Positions 11,611 to 39,749 of a stretch of DNA of 64,000 nucleotides are shown piece by piece. The position numbers were made by a program, and so were the translations under genes. The notes below the pieces were generated by a model, which saw only the letters and a program-made list of their open reading frames with translations, made no database searches and was not told where the DNA came from. This stretch comes from a virus, in the UHGV virus genome UHGV-0371537. One strand, given 5' to 3'. Positions within the stretch are counted from its first letter, which is position 1. Each line of letters opens with the position of its first letter.

Positions 11611-12225
11611 ATGACGATGACAACGTTGAAGGCCATGGCCTTGTCCGTGACCTTTACCATTGCCAGCGGGAATGTGCACGCTTCCCAAAATACAAGTCAA
11701 TGTGTTTATGATTTCTCTGAGCAACAACTTAATACGCTGGCAACTGCCTATCACATAGGCAAGACACAAGATCTTGGTTACACTCTGGCCGCCATATCTT
11801 GGCGAGAGAGCCGCGCTGGTGAAGATGTAGTGTCAATGCGCTATGGACTCAAGGCGGCCAACATGGGAGCCTTTCAGAACAAGGTGAAGACAGTTGGTGA
11901 TCGCGAAGGTTGTAAGAATCGCAAGTGCTATGCCAATGTCGCCATAAAGTTGCTGACCGACCAAGAATATGCCGCGCAAGCCGCCCTCGAAGAGATGCAG
12001 TTCTGGCTGACCTATCACAAGCAGAATGTACGCAAATCCCTCTCCTCTTACAATGCTGGCTTCGCCCGTAATCCCGCATCGAACGCTTATGCCGCTGACG
12101 TCGTGAAGAAAGCTAAATATCTTCAGAAATGTGTGTCCTTCAAAGGCCGGACCATCTCCGAGGTAGATCCTCAGGTGATCGCCATGAACAAGCGCACGAT
12201 AGAGAAACTGAAGAGGACAAGATAA
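11611..12225 (+). CDS. secreted lytic transglycosylase-like protein (SLT domain)
   Basis: N-terminal signal-peptide-like MTMTTLKAMALSVTFTIASGNVHA; AISWRESRAGE...GAFQ...YNAG resemble SLT catalytic motifs (E-S, GLMQ, AYNAG). Confidence 0.55.
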   Translation: MTMTTLKAMALSVTFTIASGNVHASQNTSQCVYDFSEQQLNTLATAYHIGKTQDLGYTLAAISWRESRAGEDVVSMRYGLKAANMGAFQNKVKTVGDREGCKNRKCYANVAIKLLTDQEYAAQAALEEMQFWLTYHKQNVRKSLSSYNAGFARNPASNAYAADVVKKAKYLQKCVSFKGRTISEVDPQVIAMNKRTIEKLKRTR

Positions 12226-12922: not shown

Positions 12923-12970
12923 TCATTCCATAAGCAGTACGACACCAACTTGAAACGAAGGAACTATATT

Positions 12971-13330
12971 ATGGCTATCACCACAAAAACTGAATTGAAC
13001 GCGATCCTGAAAGAAGCTGGCTTCGGTAGTATCAAACGCCAGGGCAAGGTTTTACGCGATGGCGGTAAAATCGTAAAGGGCATCATGTTGGGAAGTACTG
13101 GCCCGTTGAGCATCAGCTCCCCTCAGTATGACAATCTTCGTAAACTGGCGCGTGAACTTCTCCAAGAAGACCTCCATATCACGACGCAAGAAACCAATTA
13201 TGTGGTTTTGGAATGCAACAAATTCATCGTCAGCCTTTACATCTGCAGCACCCGCTCATATCCGGTGTCTGAAGGTTATGACCCAATGTATCTGACCCAT
13301 TATGCTCAGGTTACTGTCAAAGCAAAATAA
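12971..13330 (+). CDS. hypothetical protein
   Basis: ATG 12971 in context ggaactatattATG downstream of promoter cassette; terminator follows. Confidence 0.5.
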   Translation: MAITTKTELNAILKEAGFGSIKRQGKVLRDGGKIVKGIMLGSTGPLSISSPQYDNLRKLARELLQEDLHITTQETNYVVLECNKFIVSLYICSTRSYPVSEGYDPMYLTHYAQVTVKAK

Positions 13331-13341
13331 TCAAATTCAAC

Positions 13342-13368
13342 GGGGAGCTTCGGCTCCTCTTTTGTTTT
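13342..13368 (+). terminator. rho-independent terminator
   Basis: Stem with ttcg loop followed by ttttgtttt. Confidence 0.6.
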
Positions 13369-13414
13369 CGCTAATTAAGGAAAACCGCACCGATTTATTA
13401 TCAGGAGAATTACA

Positions 13415-15403
13415 ATGGCCACCCCATCTTTCTTAAATTTCCTTGAAGAGTCTAAACAATTAGACGAAGCGTTCAACTCCGCTCCGTATGAGCTGACCAT
13501 GGGTAAGAAGAACGCAGGCGATGTGTTCTTCACCTTCATCGACGAAGATGAAAAGGAATACCGTATTCAGTTCTATACCCCACAGGGGCTGGGCAAGAAC
13601 GTTCGTCAGGTCTTCATCGGCCAGAAGCGCGGCTCCGTCTACCCTGATGCCATCGCTCGCTTCAAAAACCCAATGCGCGTCATCGCCTCCATGATCGAAG
13701 CGACCAAGCAGTTCCTGGCGACCCCTCTGGGCAAGACCATCGATGGTTATGCTGTCAACTTCTCTAAGAAAGCGCTGGAACGCGGGATGACCCTGATTCC
13801 TAAGATCATCCGCCAGTCCGGCCTGAAGCAGAAACTGAACGTCATGGACCTGACTTACGCGCCTGTCCCTGACCGTGGTTATGTGTGGTTGGTCCGCAAG
13901 GGCAAAGATCCGGCTCAGGTATTCGACGGTCCGAAGATGCAGGGCATCACCTGGGATGATCCAGACAAGGTCGGTGACGTTCCGGTTCAGAACAATACCC
14001 CAGATGTGGGGACTTCATCTTCTGTTGATGATTCCAACGGATGGAAATTAACTTCAAACGGGGATCAGCCTATGTTGATCTGGGTTGGCAAAGAGAGAGG
14101 CCGCATGAACACGGCAAATATCGCTCCCCACTACAATGAGCCAGGCGTGTATGTTGGCGCATACATGAATGAGAAATCTGTGCGTGGGCAAAGTGCTGAT
14201 TTCATTGCTCGTCAGTTGAAATTACCGCAAGTCCCTATCAGTATCCTGAATGATTTCACCACGGCGTCCACAAAATTTTGGAAAGGTTCTCAGCAGAAGT
14301 CTGCGCCAGCTGACTCCAACACCACTATTGGTGCTCGGGGTGTGGGAACTGGGTCTGGTTCTTCTGAAATCGAAATCAACCGCGACTGGTACAACAGCTC
14401 AGACACTGGTCTGGTGTTGAAGAGCGGGCGCGACCCGATTCGCGGAAACTACACCCGCTTGATGAGCGGTTCGAGAGAAGTAGCCACATTCTATGGCTAT
14501 GATTTTGACAAATACCCAGACGGAACTGAAGTATCTTGGAATATGAAGCGCGGCTTCACCAACCAAGACTTGGTCGGTGCGTCCATGACCAAACAGAAGA
14601 AAGGCATGTACGATCAGTACACTTTCAAGAAAGGTGCTCAGTTAATTCTGGTGGTGGACGTTGATACCAGCAACAATACCAACACCCTCAGTTCTAACGA
14701 CCTAAAAATCCCGCGCAACGCCGAAGTATTCGGTGAAACTGGTAGTGGTTTCTCCGTTCGGTGGGCTGTCAATTTCCCCGAAACGGGAAAATATGCCGGT
14801 ACTTCTATGATAACCAACGTAACCTATTATCATGACAAAGGCAAAGTTGCATTCACCCCAATTGTCTCTCAGAAAGGGCGTACCCTGAACAATCCGAAGA
14901 CATATGAACTTCCTTTGAACAAAGATTTGGTCCAGAGTGTGATTGATGAGATTTCATCAAAAATGGTATATCTTTCCAGAAACCTCCAACAGTTGAAAAG
15001 TCAGACATACAACCCAAACCAGGTTTTCTTGAATGATATAACCATCACGGATAAAGGTGAAGTGATTTGGAACGATTACAACTTGTCTGACGGCAAAGTT
15101 ACACAAATTATGCTGTCCATGATAAGCGCAGAAAATAAACGCTTGGAGAAAGTGACAAACAGGCCGGATATCACATTACCAAAGAAACAAGCCGAAGTAG
15201 TAGAATTTATAAACCGGATGATTGATATTGATCTCGGACCTTATTTGAGAGAACCCAAAAAACGTGATGTGGTATTATTCGACTCTTCTGAATTGTCGAT
15301 AAACCAACTCAACAACATAGAACGCCTGGGAAGAGAAACAGGAAAATGGTCTCTTCAGTCAAACGGCGGTATGGGTCATGCACTATTTCTGAATGTTTGG
15401 TGA
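13415..15403 (+). CDS. large protein with capsid-targeting-like N-terminus (candidate encapsidated effector)
   Basis: aggag RBS; N-terminus MATPSFLNFLEE resembles T4 internal-protein/Alt targeting sequence; 3' part markedly A+T-richer. Confidence 0.65.
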   Translation: MATPSFLNFLEESKQLDEAFNSAPYELTMGKKNAGDVFFTFIDEDEKEYRIQFYTPQGLGKNVRQVFIGQKRGSVYPDAIARFKNPMRVIASMIEATKQFLATPLGKTIDGYAVNFSKKALERGMTLIPKIIRQSGLKQKLNVMDLTYAPVPDRGYVWLVRKGKDPAQVFDGPKMQGITWDDPDKVGDVPVQNNTPDVGTSSSVDDSNGWKLTSNGDQPMLIWVGKERGRMNTANIAPHYNEPGVYVGAYMNEKSVRGQSADFIARQLKLPQVPISILNDFTTASTKFWKGSQQKSAPADSNTTIGARGVGTGSGSSEIEINRDWYNSSDTGLVLKSGRDPIRGNYTRLMSGSREVATFYGYDFDKYPDGTEVSWNMKRGFTNQDLVGASMTKQKKGMYDQYTFKKGAQLILVVDVDTSNNTNTLSSNDLKIPRNAEVFGETGSGFSVRWAVNFPETGKYAGTSMITNVTYYHDKGKVAFTPIVSQKGRTLNNPKTYELPLNKDLVQSVIDEISSKMVYLSRNLQQLKSQTYNPNQVFLNDITITDKGEVIWNDYNLSDGKVTQIMLSMISAENKRLEKVTNRPDITLPKKQAEVVEFINRMIDIDLGPYLREPKKRDVVLFDSSELSINQLNNIERLGRETGKWSLQSNGGMGHALFLNVW

Positions 15404-15475
15404 AACAAGCTGAACTTGAACAGAATAAAGCCCCTCCGGGGGCTAATTACATCTAAATCCCCGAGGAGAGATCCA

Positions 15476-16048
15476 ATGAAACCTTTTATCGAATATTTTA
15501 AAGAGCAAGCTGCACAGCCTCAGACCCATGCTGGTGTCCAGGGTAAGACCGTATCCATCACCAAGCAAGCTGACGGCACCCAGTGGTGTTCCGGCGCTAC
15601 CGTGACCCAGATCACTCCTGACAATCAGGCGGATGTCTACAACCTGGAGTTAACCAACGGCAACACCATCAAGGTGAAGCTGACCCCAGACCAGACTCAC
15701 GGTATCTCCCAAGGTCAGGAAGTTGTTGCTGTCCACGATGGCTTCGAATTCTTCTTCTTCGGCAAGTCCGCCGACAAAGGCCAGGTGACTGAAGCCTATG
15801 CCCAGGAACTGGCGAACATGGACAAGATGATCGGTAAAGCACTGGGTGTTGGCAAGTCCCGCAAGAGTGGTCGCACTGAGTTCGAATACTCTGGCATCCC
15901 TGGCATCGGCAAGGCGATCACCGTGAACTTCGGCGGCGAAGATGACCCATATGTGATCGTCACCTGCAACGGCAAAGAGCAGGACATCAGCAAGGGTAAA
16001 AACCTGGCTGCTGACATTGCCAAGTTCCTCGGTGTTAAGCCTGTGTAG
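15476..16048 (+). CDS. internal-protein-like (capsid-targeting N-terminus)
   Basis: gaggag RBS; N-terminus MKPFIEYFKE resembles T4 CTS MKTYQEFIAE. Confidence 0.6.
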   Translation: MKPFIEYFKEQAAQPQTHAGVQGKTVSITKQADGTQWCSGATVTQITPDNQADVYNLELTNGNTIKVKLTPDQTHGISQGQEVVAVHDGFEFFFFGKSADKGQVTEAYAQELANMDKMIGKALGVGKSRKSGRTEFEYSGIPGIGKAITVNFGGEDDPYVIVTCNGKEQDISKGKNLAADIAKFLGVKPV

Positions 16049-16108: not shown

Positions 16109-16714
16109 TTATTTCACATACATACTGACTTGTACTTTCTTACCTTTTTCGTTTTTGACGTCCATCAGCTTGGATGCACCATTCAGTTTCATGACGGTTC
16201 CGCGTTCTTTGCCGCCATTCGGTAACTCGTATTCAATATCTTCCCCAGGAGATGGCATACCCGCATGAGGTCCCATAACCATGGCGATCTTATAACGAGC
16301 CAAGCCGGGGCGACCGCCTTTATACGCATACCAACCACCTTCAGTCATTTCTTTCCATTGCTTGTTACCGTCAATGGAGATAAAGGAATTGCCCATACCT
16401 GATTTGACATCCAACAAGTCAATATATTTGCCTGATTTGTTGTACTTGACAGCGGTGTCAGTATCAACCTTGTCAATCATCTGGGCGCTGGCAAACTGTC
16501 CATCTTTCAATCCAGATGCTGAGATGATGTCTTTGGCATTGGCCAGGATTATCTTGCGACCGTCAGGGGTTTCAAAGGTGGCTTTGTCGCCACTAACACT
16601 AACTCGCAAGAAAGTGCCGATATTGTCTTCGGTGGACTTGCCGATCTTGTCTGACTTGATATGAACAGACATCGGTGGCGCGGCTTCGGTCAAAAAGTCT
16701 TGAAAAGTTTTCAT
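16109..16714 (-). CDS. internal-protein-like (capsid-targeting N-terminus)
   Basis: N-terminus MKTFQDFLTEA nearly identical in pattern to T4 CTS MKTYQEFIAEA; GGAGAA RBS. Confidence 0.65.
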   Translation of the reverse strand: MKTFQDFLTEAAPPMSVHIKSDKIGKSTEDNIGTFLRVSVSGDKATFETPDGRKIILANAKDIISASGLKDGQFASAQMIDKVDTDTAVKYNKSGKYIDLLDVKSGMGNSFISIDGNKQWKEMTEGGWYAYKGGRPGLARYKIAMVMGPHAGMPSPGEDIEYELPNGGKERGTVMKLNGASKLMDVKNEKGKKVQVSMYVK

Positions 16715-21279: not shown

Positions 21280-22122
21280 ATGCAATCTGCCACCAAAGTT
21301 GTAAGTATGAAGCCAGCGGGCAAGACCAAGTCAGCACGTAAGAAGGAGACTGTTCAGAAAGAAGATGACTGGATGAAGTTCTCCAAAGGCGACTTTAGAA
21401 TCGCTCCGTTCAATGGCCTCTCAGAGAATCAGAACCTCGCATATCAATCTGCTCTTGAAGAAAACCTCACCATCGCGATTGGTCCGGCAGGCACGGGTAA
21501 ATCGTACTGCGGTGCCTCAGCCGCCGCCAAGCTCCTGATCGATAAAGTTGTCAGTAAGATCGTCATCACACGCTCTCCGCTGCCAACAGGCCAGACAGCA
21601 GGCTTCCGTCCTGGCGACACTTACGAAAAGCTCATGCCATACCTGATGCCCCTGATTCAGACGCTGAAAAAGGTGCTGAAGACCGATACTGGCAGCGACG
21701 GGTTCTTCAACTATCTGTGGGAGAAACGGATCATCGAGATCCAGGATCTGGAGACCATCAAGGGGATGACCTTTGACGACACCTTCCTGATTATCGAAGA
21801 AGCGCAGGAATGCGATATGGAGCAGCTGAAGAACCTGCTGACCCGCGCATCCGACTCGACTTACATCTTTGTCAACGGTGACATCAAGCAATCCAACAAG
21901 CGCCTGCGCGACAGCGCTCTGGAAAAGTACGTCGGTTCCTTCCGCGACTTCAACGCCAAGCTGGAGGCCGGAACTCTGAAGATCGATGGTGTTGGAGTCG
22001 GTGATGAATACCCTGAATGGGTACAACCGTTCAGTATCATCGAATTCAACAAGACCGACCGCAACGGGCGCGGCGACTTCACTCGCCTGATGCTGGAAGT
22101 CAACGATCTGTACGACATTTAA
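21280..22122 (+). CDS. phoH: PhoH-like ATPase
   Basis: Walker A GPAGTGKSY and PhoH-like Walker B region FLIIEEAQ. Confidence 0.8.
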   Translation: MQSATKVVSMKPAGKTKSARKKETVQKEDDWMKFSKGDFRIAPFNGLSENQNLAYQSALEENLTIAIGPAGTGKSYCGASAAAKLLIDKVVSKIVITRSPLPTGQTAGFRPGDTYEKLMPYLMPLIQTLKKVLKTDTGSDGFFNYLWEKRIIEIQDLETIKGMTFDDTFLIIEEAQECDMEQLKNLLTRASDSTYIFVNGDIKQSNKRLRDSALEKYVGSFRDFNAKLEAGTLKIDGVGVGDEYPEWVQPFSIIEFNKTDRNGRGDFTRLMLEVNDLYDI

Positions 22123-22191
22123 GTAACTCACCAACACTCCCCGCCGCCTTCAATCTACGAGGGCGGCGTATAATATGTTCCGAGACTAATC

Positions 22192-22851
22192 ATGAATTAT
22201 CAAAATATCTATGACTCTCTGATACAAAGAGCCAAGACCCGTTCATTGGTTGGTTATTCTGAAACCCACCATATTATCCCTAGATGTATGGGAGGGAAAG
22301 ATGACAAACATAATCTGGTGGAGTTGACACCAGAAGAACATTATTTAGCACATCAATTGTTAGTCAAAATATATCCCAAAAATTTCAAATTAGCATTTGC
22401 AGCTAATGCTATGTGCGTAAACAATGAATTCTCCGGTAGATCTTGTAACAAATTATTCGGTTGGTTGCGGAGAAAACTTTCTCATTCCAATAAACAGATG
22501 TACAAAGACAACCCTAATTTGAGGAAAATTCGTTCCGATCAAATGAAACAGACACATGTAAAGTATTCTCATTTGCGGGAAATACAGTCTAAACGTTTGA
22601 AGGAAAACAATATATGCGTGATAAAACAACCTTGGGAAAGTAACCATGCCACCAAAGAGTCTTTGGATATATGGAAACGCGCCGACGAATATTATGATTG
22701 GTGGTTGTGCAACCAAAAAGGTTGCACGTTCATGGCGAAAGCGTTTGGGTTCAAAAACAAGACGACTCCGCATTTCACAATGATTAATAAATTTAAATCT
22801 GGGTGGAATCCCAAAGCCGACCCAGAGTGGTTAGAGTTTGTAAGTCAATAA
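22192..22851 (+). CDS. HNH homing endonuclease (free-standing)
   Basis: ETHHIIPRCMGGKDDKHNLVELTPEEHYLAH = HNH motif; A+T-rich island between phoH and nrdA. Confidence 0.75.
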   Translation: MNYQNIYDSLIQRAKTRSLVGYSETHHIIPRCMGGKDDKHNLVELTPEEHYLAHQLLVKIYPKNFKLAFAANAMCVNNEFSGRSCNKLFGWLRRKLSHSNKQMYKDNPNLRKIRSDQMKQTHVKYSHLREIQSKRLKENNICVIKQPWESNHATKESLDIWKRADEYYDWWLCNQKGCTFMAKAFGFKNKTTPHFTMINKFKSGWNPKADPEWLEFVSQ

Positions 22852-29678: not shown

Positions 29679-29972
29679 CGCAGCGGATTTTGCCTTATAT
29701 ACTATAGGAAGCTCTGCTTCCGTTCAGTTATTGTCTTATTCGATCTTATTCGCTTCGCTCATCACACCGCCTTATGCAGGCAGCACCATTCCAATGCCAT
29801 GGAGGCATAAGGGCGAGGCAATAACTGTACACCTCAGAACATCCCTTGAAAAATGGTTTTTAATTGACAATCTGATTCAAAATAGACGATCCCCAACAAT
29901 GACTCAGGAACAAGCCCATTATAACAATTTCAGGTAAAGAGAGCGCGTGTTAACCTGTTTTGCAGTTAAGCC

Positions 29973-29997
29973 AATAAAAATCCCGCCGAAGCGGGAT
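29973..29997 (-). terminator. rho-independent terminator on minus strand
   Basis: atcccgc-cgaa-gcgggat; on minus strand the hairpin is followed by TTTTTATT. Confidence 0.6.
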
Positions 29998-30145
29998 TAT
30001 GGTTTCTTAGACAACCTGACCTTGAGGGCTTCAGTTAACAAGTCAAGGTGCCATGGCATCGATTCATTGATTTCAAATATGTTATAGCCGTGTAACTTCA
30101 ATTCATCACACATCACGAAATAGGATAATAAATCAGTTTCAAACA

Positions 30146-38518: not shown

Positions 38519-39184
38519 ATGTCCTACTCCCTCAAGGGGTTGCTCAAGCGCCCCGTCCACACATTCATTAAACCGCCTGTCGTAAAGGGGATATACCCGG
38601 CACGAGGGCAAATCTATTACGTCAAAGGCTCGAATGGTAGCGGTAAATCTACCGTGCCTTCCCAGCTGGCGGAGAGGGATCCTCAGGCGTATGTCGTGAC
38701 GCATGATAGCAAGATCATGCTGACGGTCTGTCCGTCATTCAACGTGGTCTGCATTGGCAAATATGATAAGTCAAAGTCCAAGGGGGTTGATTCTCTGAAG
38801 GATACTGAACAAATGCTATTCGCCCTGAGCATCGCCGATCTACCTGAATATCAGGTATACGATGTGATCTTTGAAGGCATCATCCCGTCAACACTGCTGA
38901 GTTCCTGGATTCCCCGCCTGACGCGCCCACCGCGCGAACTGGTTGTCCTCTTCATGGACACCCCTCTTGAAACCTGCATCGCCCGTGTTAAATCACGTAA
39001 CGGCGGTGCGGACTTCAATGAGAGCCTCGTGGTAGAGAAGTGGGGGCGCGTTCAAGACCACCGCCAGCGCCATAAGGGCTTGTTCCCTACGGTGGCCGCA
39101 GGTATGATGAAGTCTCACGGTCTAACAGTAGACCAGGCTGTAATGGCATTCCTCTGTCGTGATTTTGGGGATATTGATGACTAA
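38519..39184 (+). CDS. P-loop NTPase, kinase-like
   Basis: Walker A YVKGSNGSGKST (close to polynucleotide-kinase-type GxxGSGKST); ggag RBS. Confidence 0.55.
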   Translation: MSYSLKGLLKRPVHTFIKPPVVKGIYPARGQIYYVKGSNGSGKSTVPSQLAERDPQAYVVTHDSKIMLTVCPSFNVVCIGKYDKSKSKGVDSLKDTEQMLFALSIADLPEYQVYDVIFEGIIPSTLLSSWIPRLTRPPRELVVLFMDTPLETCIARVKSRNGGADFNESLVVEKWGRVQDHRQRHKGLFPTVAAGMMKSHGLTVDQAVMAFLCRDFGDIDD

Positions 39185-39749
39185 GAAATTGGTCTATGGG
39201 GTTGGTCACAACGACATGCCCTATGGCACAGCTACGGTAAATGGAAAGGCAACCGACGAATATTCTGCTTGGTCGGGGTTGTTACAAAGGGCGTATGATC
39301 CAAAATACCATGCCAGAAATCCGACTTATGTTGGTTGCTCTGTCGTGGAAGAGTGGCATTTTCGATCGAAATTCGTTAAGTGGTTTGGTGTGAACTACGT
39401 TAAAGGATGGTGTCTAGACAAGGATATTTTGAATCCTGGAAACAAAGTTTATGGCCCAGACACATGCATCTATGTGCCCGTTTGGATCAATACATTTGCC
39501 AATGATAGCGGCGCAATAAGGGGTGGTCTCCCAATAGGAGTTTCATTAAACAAGACAACCGGAAAATATCTTTCTCAGTGTAAATCCGGTGGTAAAGTGA
39601 TAAATCTGGGTTATTACGACGACCCCAAAGAAGCGCACGAGGTTTGGTTGAGATTTAAGCTAAACCTGGTTTTGGAAAGGAAGAAAGACATGGATAGTAT
39701 AGACCATCGTATTTATCCAAATCTGGTTCATATTTTGCAAAGTAAATGA
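39177..39749 (+). CDS. homing-endonuclease-like protein with AP2-like DNA-binding motif
   Basis: A+T-rich gene; KVINLGYYDDPKEAHEVWL resembles AP2/HNH_3-associated DNA-binding motif. Confidence 0.4.
   Translation: MTKKLVYGVGHNDMPYGTATVNGKATDEYSAWSGLLQRAYDPKYHARNPTYVGCSVVEEWHFRSKFVKWFGVNYVKGWCLDKDILNPGNKVYGPDTCIYVPVWINTFANDSGAIRGGLPIGVSLNKTTGKYLSQCKSGGKVINLGYYDDPKEAHEVWLRFKLNLVLERKKDMDSIDHRIYPNLVHILQSK

Follow-up and report, generated by a model that had tools for sequence, protein, structure and literature searches.

Compositional mosaicism and cassette exchange in a large modular, probably packaged protein of an Agtrevirus-like phage

In phage T4, the capsid targeting sequence directs otherwise unrelated internal proteins (Ips) into the scaffolding core (PMC3012670). 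This sequence is all that these proteins have in common, and they act as defence inhibitors (PMC3012670; PMC12373910); the GmrSD type IV restriction enzyme that is inhibited differs between Ip1, Ip2 and Ip3 (PMC12373910). Polyvalent proteins, which are multidomain and of variable architecture, are predicted to be packaged and delivered with DNA (Iyer et al. 2017, PMC5512222). In the present study, we analysed an uninterrupted open reading frame (ORF) at 13415..15403 (+), encoding 662 amino acids (aa), in a 64-kb stretch of the viral genome UHGV-0371537 (64,000 nucleotides, hereafter the window). The gene is very probably a compositional mosaic left as a footprint by cassette exchange. Taken as a whole, its product is likely a large modular virion protein, packaged in the head and ejected as a carrier of exchanged anti-defence cassettes; for the ejected anti-defence part by itself, the chances are only somewhat better than even. 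An earlier note on this DNA had suggested a packaging N-terminus fused to an effector domain. The likeness of the leader to that of T4 internal proteins, mass spectrometry of homologues in virions and the analogy with T4 Ip1-3 are consistent with both words.

The 662-aa protein resembles T-even internal proteins in having a short N-terminal leader with a (L/I)-x-E cleavage-type motif, in lying in a hypervariable locus with other leader-bearing genes, and in carrying a terminal domain (M5) homologous to the mature part of one of them (YP_009281475). By analogy, delivery of a pre-made protein together with the DNA would be the expected logic here. However, a T-even Ip consists of a single domain, has about 75-200 aa and carries a leader of its own, whereas here one leader and a 190-aa conserved domain carry four cassettes, with no cleavage site between the last two modules, M4 and M5. 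M5 is unrelated to T4 Ip1, and ipI is a separate neighbour gene in UFV-AREG1, the phage that encodes YP_009281475.

Polyvalent proteins are similar in being large and multidomain with highly variable architecture (here five modules and at least 28 architectures), in belonging to tailed phages with a portal-terminase packaging system, in having the same domain alone or embedded in larger proteins, and in that they are thought to be delivered with the DNA and to act in the earliest phase of infection. In contrast, their hallmark domains (ART, MuF, ParB, Zn-peptidase, methylase, ArdA and others) were not found here by Pfam, and the cassettes all have small folds that do not look enzymatic and have no known relatives. 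What defines that class is a set of disparate biochemical activities, and none is recognisable in the 662-aa protein. T4 Alt is a virion protein whose short N-terminal leader is removed after Glu by the T4 prohead protease. Alt is of similar length (682 vs 662 aa) and likewise combines an N-terminal part with a C-terminal effector, but there is no detectable sequence similarity and no ART family match in the 662-aa protein; kinship of its N-terminal domain M1 with Alt was rejected (best BLAST expectation value (E) 3.5; M1 family hidden Markov model score -1 bit). Our protein is a full member of the phrog_3867/Vi01_094c family, in the same syntenic slot, and differs in that it carries M5 and not the module M6. 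No description of a multi-cassette carrier like this one was found in the searchable literature.

Module architecture of the gene and its family

By megablast, the window belongs to Ackermannviridae and is closest to the Agtrevirus phages SKML-39 and ChubbyThor and to related E. coli phages. The flanking genes are 91-98% identical to those of SKML-39 and ChubbyThor, and about 70-88% identical, mostly 71-85%, to those of Kuttervirus and Taipeivirus phages. Judged from these matches, the source phage is an Agtrevirus-like member of Ackermannviridae.

The 662-aa protein belongs to phrog_3867 (function not assigned; E 6e-259, 863 bits, in two stretches), among whose homologues are Vi01_094c, CBA120 orf111, LIMEstone1 ORF081/082 and Sajous1 gp214. 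A second, local match at aa 586-644 is to phrog_7673, 'internal head protein' (E 2e-8). The gene is preceded by gp46/47-like recombination nuclease genes, and the DNA primase gene (gp61-like in the Vi01 annotation) is downstream, in a conserved order of SLT-like, DUF7270, small ORF, phrog_3867, phrog_4048, Dps-like and primase genes that is the same in SKML-39, LHE287, allotria, Menlow, Vi01 and Sajous1. Homologues at this slot range from 541 to 1124 aa in length:

KE31, 541 aa
SKML-39, 660 aa
ChubbyThor, 683 aa
Sajous1, 795 aa
Vi01, 799 aa
AV101, 906 aa
Menlow, 925 aa
allotria, 964 aa
LHE287, 1124 aa

A module map was drawn from BLAST of the 662-aa protein against 120 database homologues and a nine-genome panel, and modules were counted in 131 cluster representatives of at least 500 aa. 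The map is given below with the G+C content (GC) and the G+C content at third codon positions (GC3; GC1 and GC2 are used accordingly for first and second positions):

13415..13468 (+), aa 1-18: leader, MATPSFLNFLEESKQLDE
13469..14029 (+), aa 19-205: M1, conserved N-terminal domain and linker; GC 0.545, GC3 0.69
14030..14344 (+), aa 206-310: M2, cassette; GC3 0.51
14345..14686 (+), aa 311-424: M3, cassette, S/T/N/G-rich linkers on both sides; GC3 0.61
14687..15151 (+), aa 425-579: M4, of an A+T-rich allele class here; GC 0.415, GC3 0.47
15152..15403 (+), aa 580-662 and stop codon: M5, terminal domain; GC 0.41, GC3 0.37

M1, in 130 of the 131 representatives and always first, and M4, in all 131, are the constant parts of at least 28 architectures. 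M2 is present in 113 representatives, at varying positions and in some with a second, 32% identical copy. M3 is present in 32, in some ahead of M2, and is not present in SKML-39, allotria, KE31, ChubbyThor, AV101 or Vi01. M5 is found in 49 representatives. Besides reordering or absence of M2 and M3, relatives have extra inserts of 100-320 aa, and the M1-M2-M3-M4-M5 architecture of our protein recurs in a single other representative. The conserved N-terminus proposed by the earlier note is therefore real, and homologues are not conserved end to end. The picture of a gene in two parts has to be replaced by one of M1 followed by four cassettes: the end is swapped between relatives as supposed, but M2 and M3 are swapped as freely. 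Similarly, an exchangeable, acquired A+T-rich 3' part describes M5 well, but about two thirds of that stretch is M4, which every member has.

M1 was found by tblastn in 356 phage records, those of Vibrio, Aeromonas and Ralstonia phages among them. Its identity is 86-96% within Ackermannviridae; Vibrio phages have it at 41-55% identity, joined to C-terminal parts that are unrelated. Vibrio phage K476 has tandem paralogues of 837 and 749 aa (L014 4128-6641 and 6995-9244) with the leader and M1 in common, 56% identical to each other, while in the C-terminal ~550-620 aa neither is related to the other or to the 662-aa protein. Such paralogues show M1 in use as a common N-terminal carrier.

At the other end, M4 occurs in three allele classes, at 90-97%, about 62% and 33-37% identity, and a search of 1.84 billion cluster representatives found it only in large phrog_3867-family proteins. 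In most phages M4 is followed by M6, the canonical C-terminal module of ~127 aa at the end of the 787-position phrog_3867 profile. M6 was detected in 254 phage records, those of the most divergent genera (Dickeya, Serratia and Erwinia phages) among them. The 662-aa protein does not have M6 and ends with M5 at its place; LHE287-type proteins have M4-M5-M6. The full M4+M5 cassette was found by tblastn in 38 phage records, and the same M4-M5 junction is present in SKML-39, allotria, KE31, ChubbyThor and LHE287. For M2, M3 and M6, no relatives were found outside the phrog_3867 family. Cassettes are joined by low-complexity linkers, and nucleotide breakpoints recur at ~13994-14019, 14323, 14673-14705 and the gene end. 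In the database protein P0017, a crossover lies within the conserved FGET..G.S motif of M4.

Structure and family searches pointed to no biochemical function. Pfam has no domain above threshold in the 662-aa protein or in six homologues, and nothing significant came from PDB, whether searched by sequence or by profiles of the M1 and M4+M5 alignments. The full-length AlphaFold model is poor (mean predicted local distance difference test score (pLDDT) 53; about 35 in M3) and served for rough domain limits only. A model of aa 425-662 from a 22-row alignment reached pLDDT 94 and a predicted template modelling score of 0.73; in it, M4 (pLDDT about 95) is modelled as a beta-sheet followed by long helices and M5 as a small alpha/beta unit. 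Foldseek gave no match against PDB at E <= 0.001, a BFVD search returned family members only, and T4 IPI* (Ip1) was not among the matches of any search, PDB included.

Base composition and exchange between genera

Uneven composition had been read by eye, and sliding-window GC and GC3 together with a change-point scan bore it out; the profile is not uniform. In sliding 60-codon windows, aa 31-150 have GC 0.53-0.58 and GC3 0.72-0.77, and aa 480-662 have GC 0.37-0.41 and GC3 0.37-0.48. The 504 bases of 14900-15403, singled out beforehand as A+T-rich, have GC 0.387, which is in the lowest 0.7% of 500-nt windows in the 64-kb window (mean GC 0.495, standard deviation 0.034). For aa 463-662, GC is 0.393 and GC3 0.430, a value as low being found in 1 of 125 in-frame 200-codon comparison windows taken from the other 58 long ORFs (GC3 0.619 +/- 0.056); GC1 (0.44) and GC2 (0.31) are likewise low. 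Of the 10 ORFs in the window with 400 aa or more, this one has the largest within-gene ranges of GC3 (0.34) and GC (0.19).

The maximum-likelihood change point of total GC is at 14788 (aa 458), where GC falls from 0.511 to 0.393. With a log-likelihood ratio (LLR) of 11.8, this step exceeds every one of 500 codon shuffles (maximum 8.5) as well as the nine other long genes (<=4.2). For GC3, the change point is at codon 181 (13955), from 0.70 to 0.49 (LLR 11.6, above all 1000 shuffles), and a second step from 0.52 to 0.34 is at codon 587 (15173). Both GC3 steps match module borders, codon 181 being the end of the M1 fold and codon 587 the start of M5. The first lies close to ~13990, where the earlier note had the change begin. 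The 5' part, G+C-balanced according to the note, proved somewhat richer in G+C at third positions than the average gene of the window (GC3 0.69 vs 0.59-0.62). Since the shift is seen in all three codon positions, synonymous sites included, it goes beyond an effect of the amino acids encoded. That amino-acid composition alone causes the low GC was rejected, GC3 and synonymous divergence (dS) being independent of it.

Comparison between genera separates the modules further. GC3 of M1 tracks the genome, with 0.49-0.57 in Kuttervirus and 0.69-0.70 in Agtrevirus. M5 has GC3 of 0.34-0.41 in all five copies from Agtrevirus and Kuttervirus, where GC3 of M1 is 0.50-0.70, and in LHE287 the M6 downstream of M5 is back at GC 0.56 and GC3 0.69. 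Composition travels with the module and not with the genome.

Divergence at synonymous sites gives the same division. Against Kuttervirus allotria and KE31, dS is 1.6-1.7 in M1, 0.12-0.14 in M2, 0.03-0.12 in M4 and 0.04-0.065 in M5, and against the Taipeivirus phage Menlow it is 0.95 in M1 and 0.085 in M2. At the nucleotide level, M1 is 96% identical to Agtrevirus and 81-82% to Kuttervirus, the same pattern as in flanking genes. M2 is 97-98% identical to Kuttervirus and Taipeivirus copies, M3 93-94% to Menlow and LHE287, and M4 97-98.5% to Kuttervirus allotria and KE31; M2, M4 and M5 all fall at 97-98.5% to Kuttervirus copies. The ratio of nonsynonymous to synonymous divergence (omega) is below 0.4 for every module in most comparisons, with a single highest value of 0.54 and with 0.01-0.07 in M1, which indicates that all modules are under purifying selection as functional coding sequence. 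The low dS of M2, M4 and M5 against the high dS of M1 shows that cassettes moved recently between genera, and horizontal exchange of the 3' part, as the note had proposed, is thereby supported. By these comparisons, the gene from ~aa 200 on consists of cassettes recently moved among genera, and M1 and the flanks diverged with their genomes. In our model, the leader and M1 are inherited vertically with the G+C-rich codon usage of the resident genome, and M2, M3, M4 and M5 circulate by recombination among Ackermannviridae genera of differing G+C content.

Terminal domain, leader and alternative readings

M5 is 96-100% identical at the amino-acid level to its copies in SKML-39, ChubbyThor, allotria and KE31 and 88% to that in LHE287, and it is the only module with relatives outside the family. 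Its match to phrog_7673 covers profile positions 17-75 of 90 and reaches E 9e-10 in LHE287. In tblastn with aa 428-662, Tequatrovirus 'internal head protein' genes were matched over the last ~80 aa only. In UFV-AREG1, YP_009281475 is a 90-aa gene of the ip locus, directly after ipI, and genes around it begin MKT(Y/F)(Q/K)EFI.E. Pairwise alignment of M5 with this protein covers its whole mature part (34% identity, E 3e-14), and the T-even leader aligns with the end of M4. The profile match, tblastn and pairwise alignment agree that the last 83 aa share ancestry with a T-even internal head protein, so that a foreign-looking terminal domain, as first suspected, holds.

Searching the 1.84 billion cluster representatives with aa 425-662 yielded 18 proteins only. 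Outside the family, M5 is found in T-even-type small proteins, in leaderless standalone proteins of 74-88 aa and in one 350-aa protein. An eight-sequence alignment shows a common domain of ~70 aa with invariant I, D, R, R, G and A positions. One standalone homologue, of 77 aa and without leader, is on the metagenomic contig ERR12385554_2695 (L012 6001-6234); this contig is unrelated and phage-like, 40 kb long with 28% GC, and the gene has HTH, YqaJ exonuclease and RecT genes as neighbours, so that the region resembles an early accessory one. The domain is thus in use as an ordinary gene as well. The outside relatives all lie in genomes of 28-35% GC, and the T-even gene itself has GC 0.31. Because these relatives live in A+T-rich genomes, matching the composition of M5, M5 is taken as foreign; on homology and composition, it is the one demonstrably foreign domain of the protein, from an A+T-rich gene pool.

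The leader MATPSFLNFLEESKQLDE ends in L-D-E and is followed by A-F-N, a motif of the T4 gp21 type (L/I-x-E) at which cleavage is predicted. Residues F6, L7, F9, E12 and Q15-N21 are invariant in 26 homologues, and (L/I)-x-E followed by AFN is kept even in the Vibrio phage K476 paralogues. Together with AFN, MATPSFLNFLEESKQLDE has the hydrophobic pattern of the T4 capsid targeting sequence (MKTYQEFIAE) and two L-x-E sites, but is longer. Three adjacent genes in the window carry similar N-termini, and gene content varies between relatives; this is a polymorphic locus with leader-bearing genes. Genomes of Vi01-like phages include genes for prohead core proteins and for a T4-type head maturation protease (PMC10892097). 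Within the 662-aa protein, L/I-x-E motifs occur only at aa 10, 16, 42, 510 and 611. A polyprotein cut between cassettes was considered and is not supported, with no such motif at any module border.

According to our model, the protein would be made late in infection and directed by its leader to a T4-type prohead core, where a gp21-like prohead protease would trim it after L-D-E18. It would then be kept in the head and ejected with the DNA, and its cassettes could act at once in the new host, most likely by inhibiting host defence as T4 Ip1-3 do. In a bolder version, which we regard as possible but doubtful, one leader and the carrier M1 deliver a shuffled array of small anti-defence cassettes, forming a 'polymorphic ejected-protein' system with a logic comparable to that of polymorphic toxins. 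Cassettes might then be drawn from a pool of T-even internal proteins and of standalone early genes of unrelated phages, each might be directed against a different defence, such as type IV enzymes aimed at hypermodified thymidines, and the repertoire might determine host range alongside tail spikes.

Homologues of this protein are virion components. Sajous1 gp214 gave 196 spectra in CsCl-purified virions and was among the five most represented proteins, with 32 spectra for gp215 and 20 for gp216 (PMC10892097). Here gp214 is the homologue of our protein, gp215 the phrog_4048-type gene, gp216 a 79-aa neighbour and gp217 Dps-like. For LIMEstone1, ORF082 and ORF081 carry the record note 'confirmed structural protein', as do its homologues of the DUF7270, phrog_4048 and Dps-like genes.

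Abundance in purified virions would also be expected of an external structural component, for example in tail completion, in the neck, in head decoration or in host interaction, whose shuffling would come from surface exposure and host-range or immune-type selection. The published reading of Sajous1 gp214-217 is a tail-associated 'ferrojan horse' operon (PMC10892097), some homologue records are labelled 'tail completion protein', and tail spikes are typically module-shuffled too. A Pfam Tail_spike_N match at aa 532-557 (E 0.027) could be added, but it covers 26 residues only and is below threshold, with 15 bits vs a cut-off of 25. No tail, fibre or Ig-like family was found in any of seven homologues, and the genes around ours are for replication and recombination, with the tail-spike region far away. 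Moreover, the conserved (L/I)xE motif followed by A is of the T4-type prohead protease kind and similar leaders are on three adjacent genes, and the outside relatives are T-even internal head proteins and small early-looking genes, not surface proteins. An external role therefore appears unlikely to us, although it is the strongest of the alternatives. The common leaders suggest an internal-protein locus instead of a 'ferrojan horse' tail operon.

Several points nevertheless weigh against an ejected carrier of anti-defence cassettes. The likeness of the leader to the T4 capsid targeting sequence falls short of a match. Virion evidence on homologues does not place the protein inside the head rather than elsewhere, and depositors of some homologues chose the tail completion name mentioned above. 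M5 is only 34% identical to a T-even protein of unassigned function, and the direction of its transfer is deduced from composition and distribution. The absence of a canonical L/I-x-E between M4 and M5 means that M5 is probably not released separately. In addition, the total-GC change point at aa 458 falls within M4, away from the module borders, which leaves the limits of the unit that came in with M5 blurred. The searchable literature on Ackermannviridae internal proteins held nothing relevant to head location, processing or ejection.

Alternatively, the A+T-rich 3' part may be ancestral, with a composition arising from amino acids or local bias, and relatives without M5 may have lost it. 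Low GC1 and GC2 in aa 463-662 fit a K/N/I-rich domain, and M4, which makes up most of the A+T-rich stretch, is in every representative. However, GC3 falls too (0.43 vs 0.62 +/- 0.056), and the low GC3 of M5 is unchanged in genomes of different background. In M4 and M5, dS between genera is 10- to 50-fold below that of M1 of the same gene. Furthermore, the most divergent genera carry M6 (254 records) and M4+M5 is limited to 38, and the outside relatives of M5 are in genomes of 28-35% GC. We consider this explanation very unlikely. An assembly or annotation artefact, either a chimeric contig or two genes read as one, could be suspected from the two overlapping CDS (coding sequences) of LIMEstone1 and the second CDS over the 3' end in KE31, but is rejected by the uninterrupted ORF, by P0001 (a 98%-identical 662-aa protein of the same architecture on an independent 48-kb contig), by the recurrence of the M4-M5 junction in five named phages and by the low omega of every module.

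Ackermannviridae (Vi01-like) phages are widely used in biocontrol and phage therapy, and their host range is usually ascribed to tail spikes alone. If the protein is an ejected anti-defence carrier, it would be a second, intracellular determinant of host range which varies between near-identical phages. One small domain, M5, is seen in three forms of delivery: on its own in an early-looking gene, behind a leader in a T-even internal protein and as a cassette in a large, probably packaged protein. This link offers a concrete handle on the function of many uncharacterised T-even Ips, and for the gp214-217 cluster the internal-protein reading is an alternative to that of a 'ferrojan horse' tail operon.

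Expression signals and neighbouring genes

The genes and signals around the 662-aa gene are as follows:

11611-12225 (+): SLT lytic-transglycosylase protein (Pfam E 2e-4) with a signal-peptide-like N-terminus
12950-13330 (+): 126-aa gene, phrog_13016, just upstream; short nucleotide matches only in the eight loci compared
13342..13377 (+): terminator-like hairpin GGGGAGC-TTCG-GCTCC and T run, then the element CGCTAATTAAGG; candidate promoter of the gene
15476..16048 (+): 190-aa gene, phrog_4048, with a similar leader, MKPFIEYFKE then Q; weak TOBE match (E 0.01); same hotspot
16109..16714 (-): sporadic 201-aa gene, MKTFQDFLTE then A, an N-terminus that is nearly the T4 capsid targeting sequence; same hotspot

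The hairpin and a CGCTAATTA(A/G) element are at the same upstream position in 11 of the 11 Ackermannviridae loci compared. The motif GCTAATTA occurs only twice in the window (0.9 expected by chance), at 13370-13377 and 15442-15449, and in both places a terminator hairpin immediately precedes it and a gene with a leader starts ~30-45 nt downstream. The canonical T4 late promoter TATAAATA was not found upstream of our gene, where a conserved CTAATTA-type element takes the equivalent position. Upstream of the next gene, the element is TATAAATA, CTAAATA or CTAATTA depending on the phage; TATAAATA is the T4 late-promoter motif and is annotated as a late promoter in LIMEstone1. GCTAATTA may thus be a variant of the late promoter, and these motifs suggest late-type transcription of the gene.

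The homologue of the 15476..16048 gene in LIMEstone1 is ORF080, one of its proteins with the 'confirmed structural protein' note. The 16109..16714 gene has no counterpart in eight syntenic loci and occurs in just 15 Ackermannviridae records (Gloob, FEC14, MK-13, Klebsiella T751 and others); its protein matched no family of Pfam or PHROG. Insertion of a sporadic internal-protein gene into the hotspot is probable here. The 79-aa neighbour seen in relatives starts with MKGFPDFLKE; in Sajous1, it and the phrog_4048-type gene are at L013:11080-12301. The 12950-13330 slot is filled by other small genes in relatives and is another variable position of the locus. Homologues of the 11611-12225 protein are labelled 'RegB endoribonuclease' in several relatives. 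This label looks wrong, because Sajous1 gp211, the homologue, is found in virions (31 spectra).

Two records of the phrog_3867 gene differ in annotation from the others. The LIMEstone1 homologue is annotated as the overlapping CDS ORF082 and ORF081 (L006 4001-5597), and its translation departs from all relatives after ~aa 103, so that the record may contain a frameshift or an error of sequencing. In KE31, the second CDS overlaps the 3' end of the gene.

Other low-GC islands in the window are at 22100-22850, 29700-30000 and 39177-39749. The ORF at 22192-22851 has GC 0.37 and GC3 0.40, the lowest in the window; GC is 0.37 too around 29800-29900, and GC3 is 0.42 in the ORF at 39177-39749. These islands are candidates for further horizontally acquired accessory genes.

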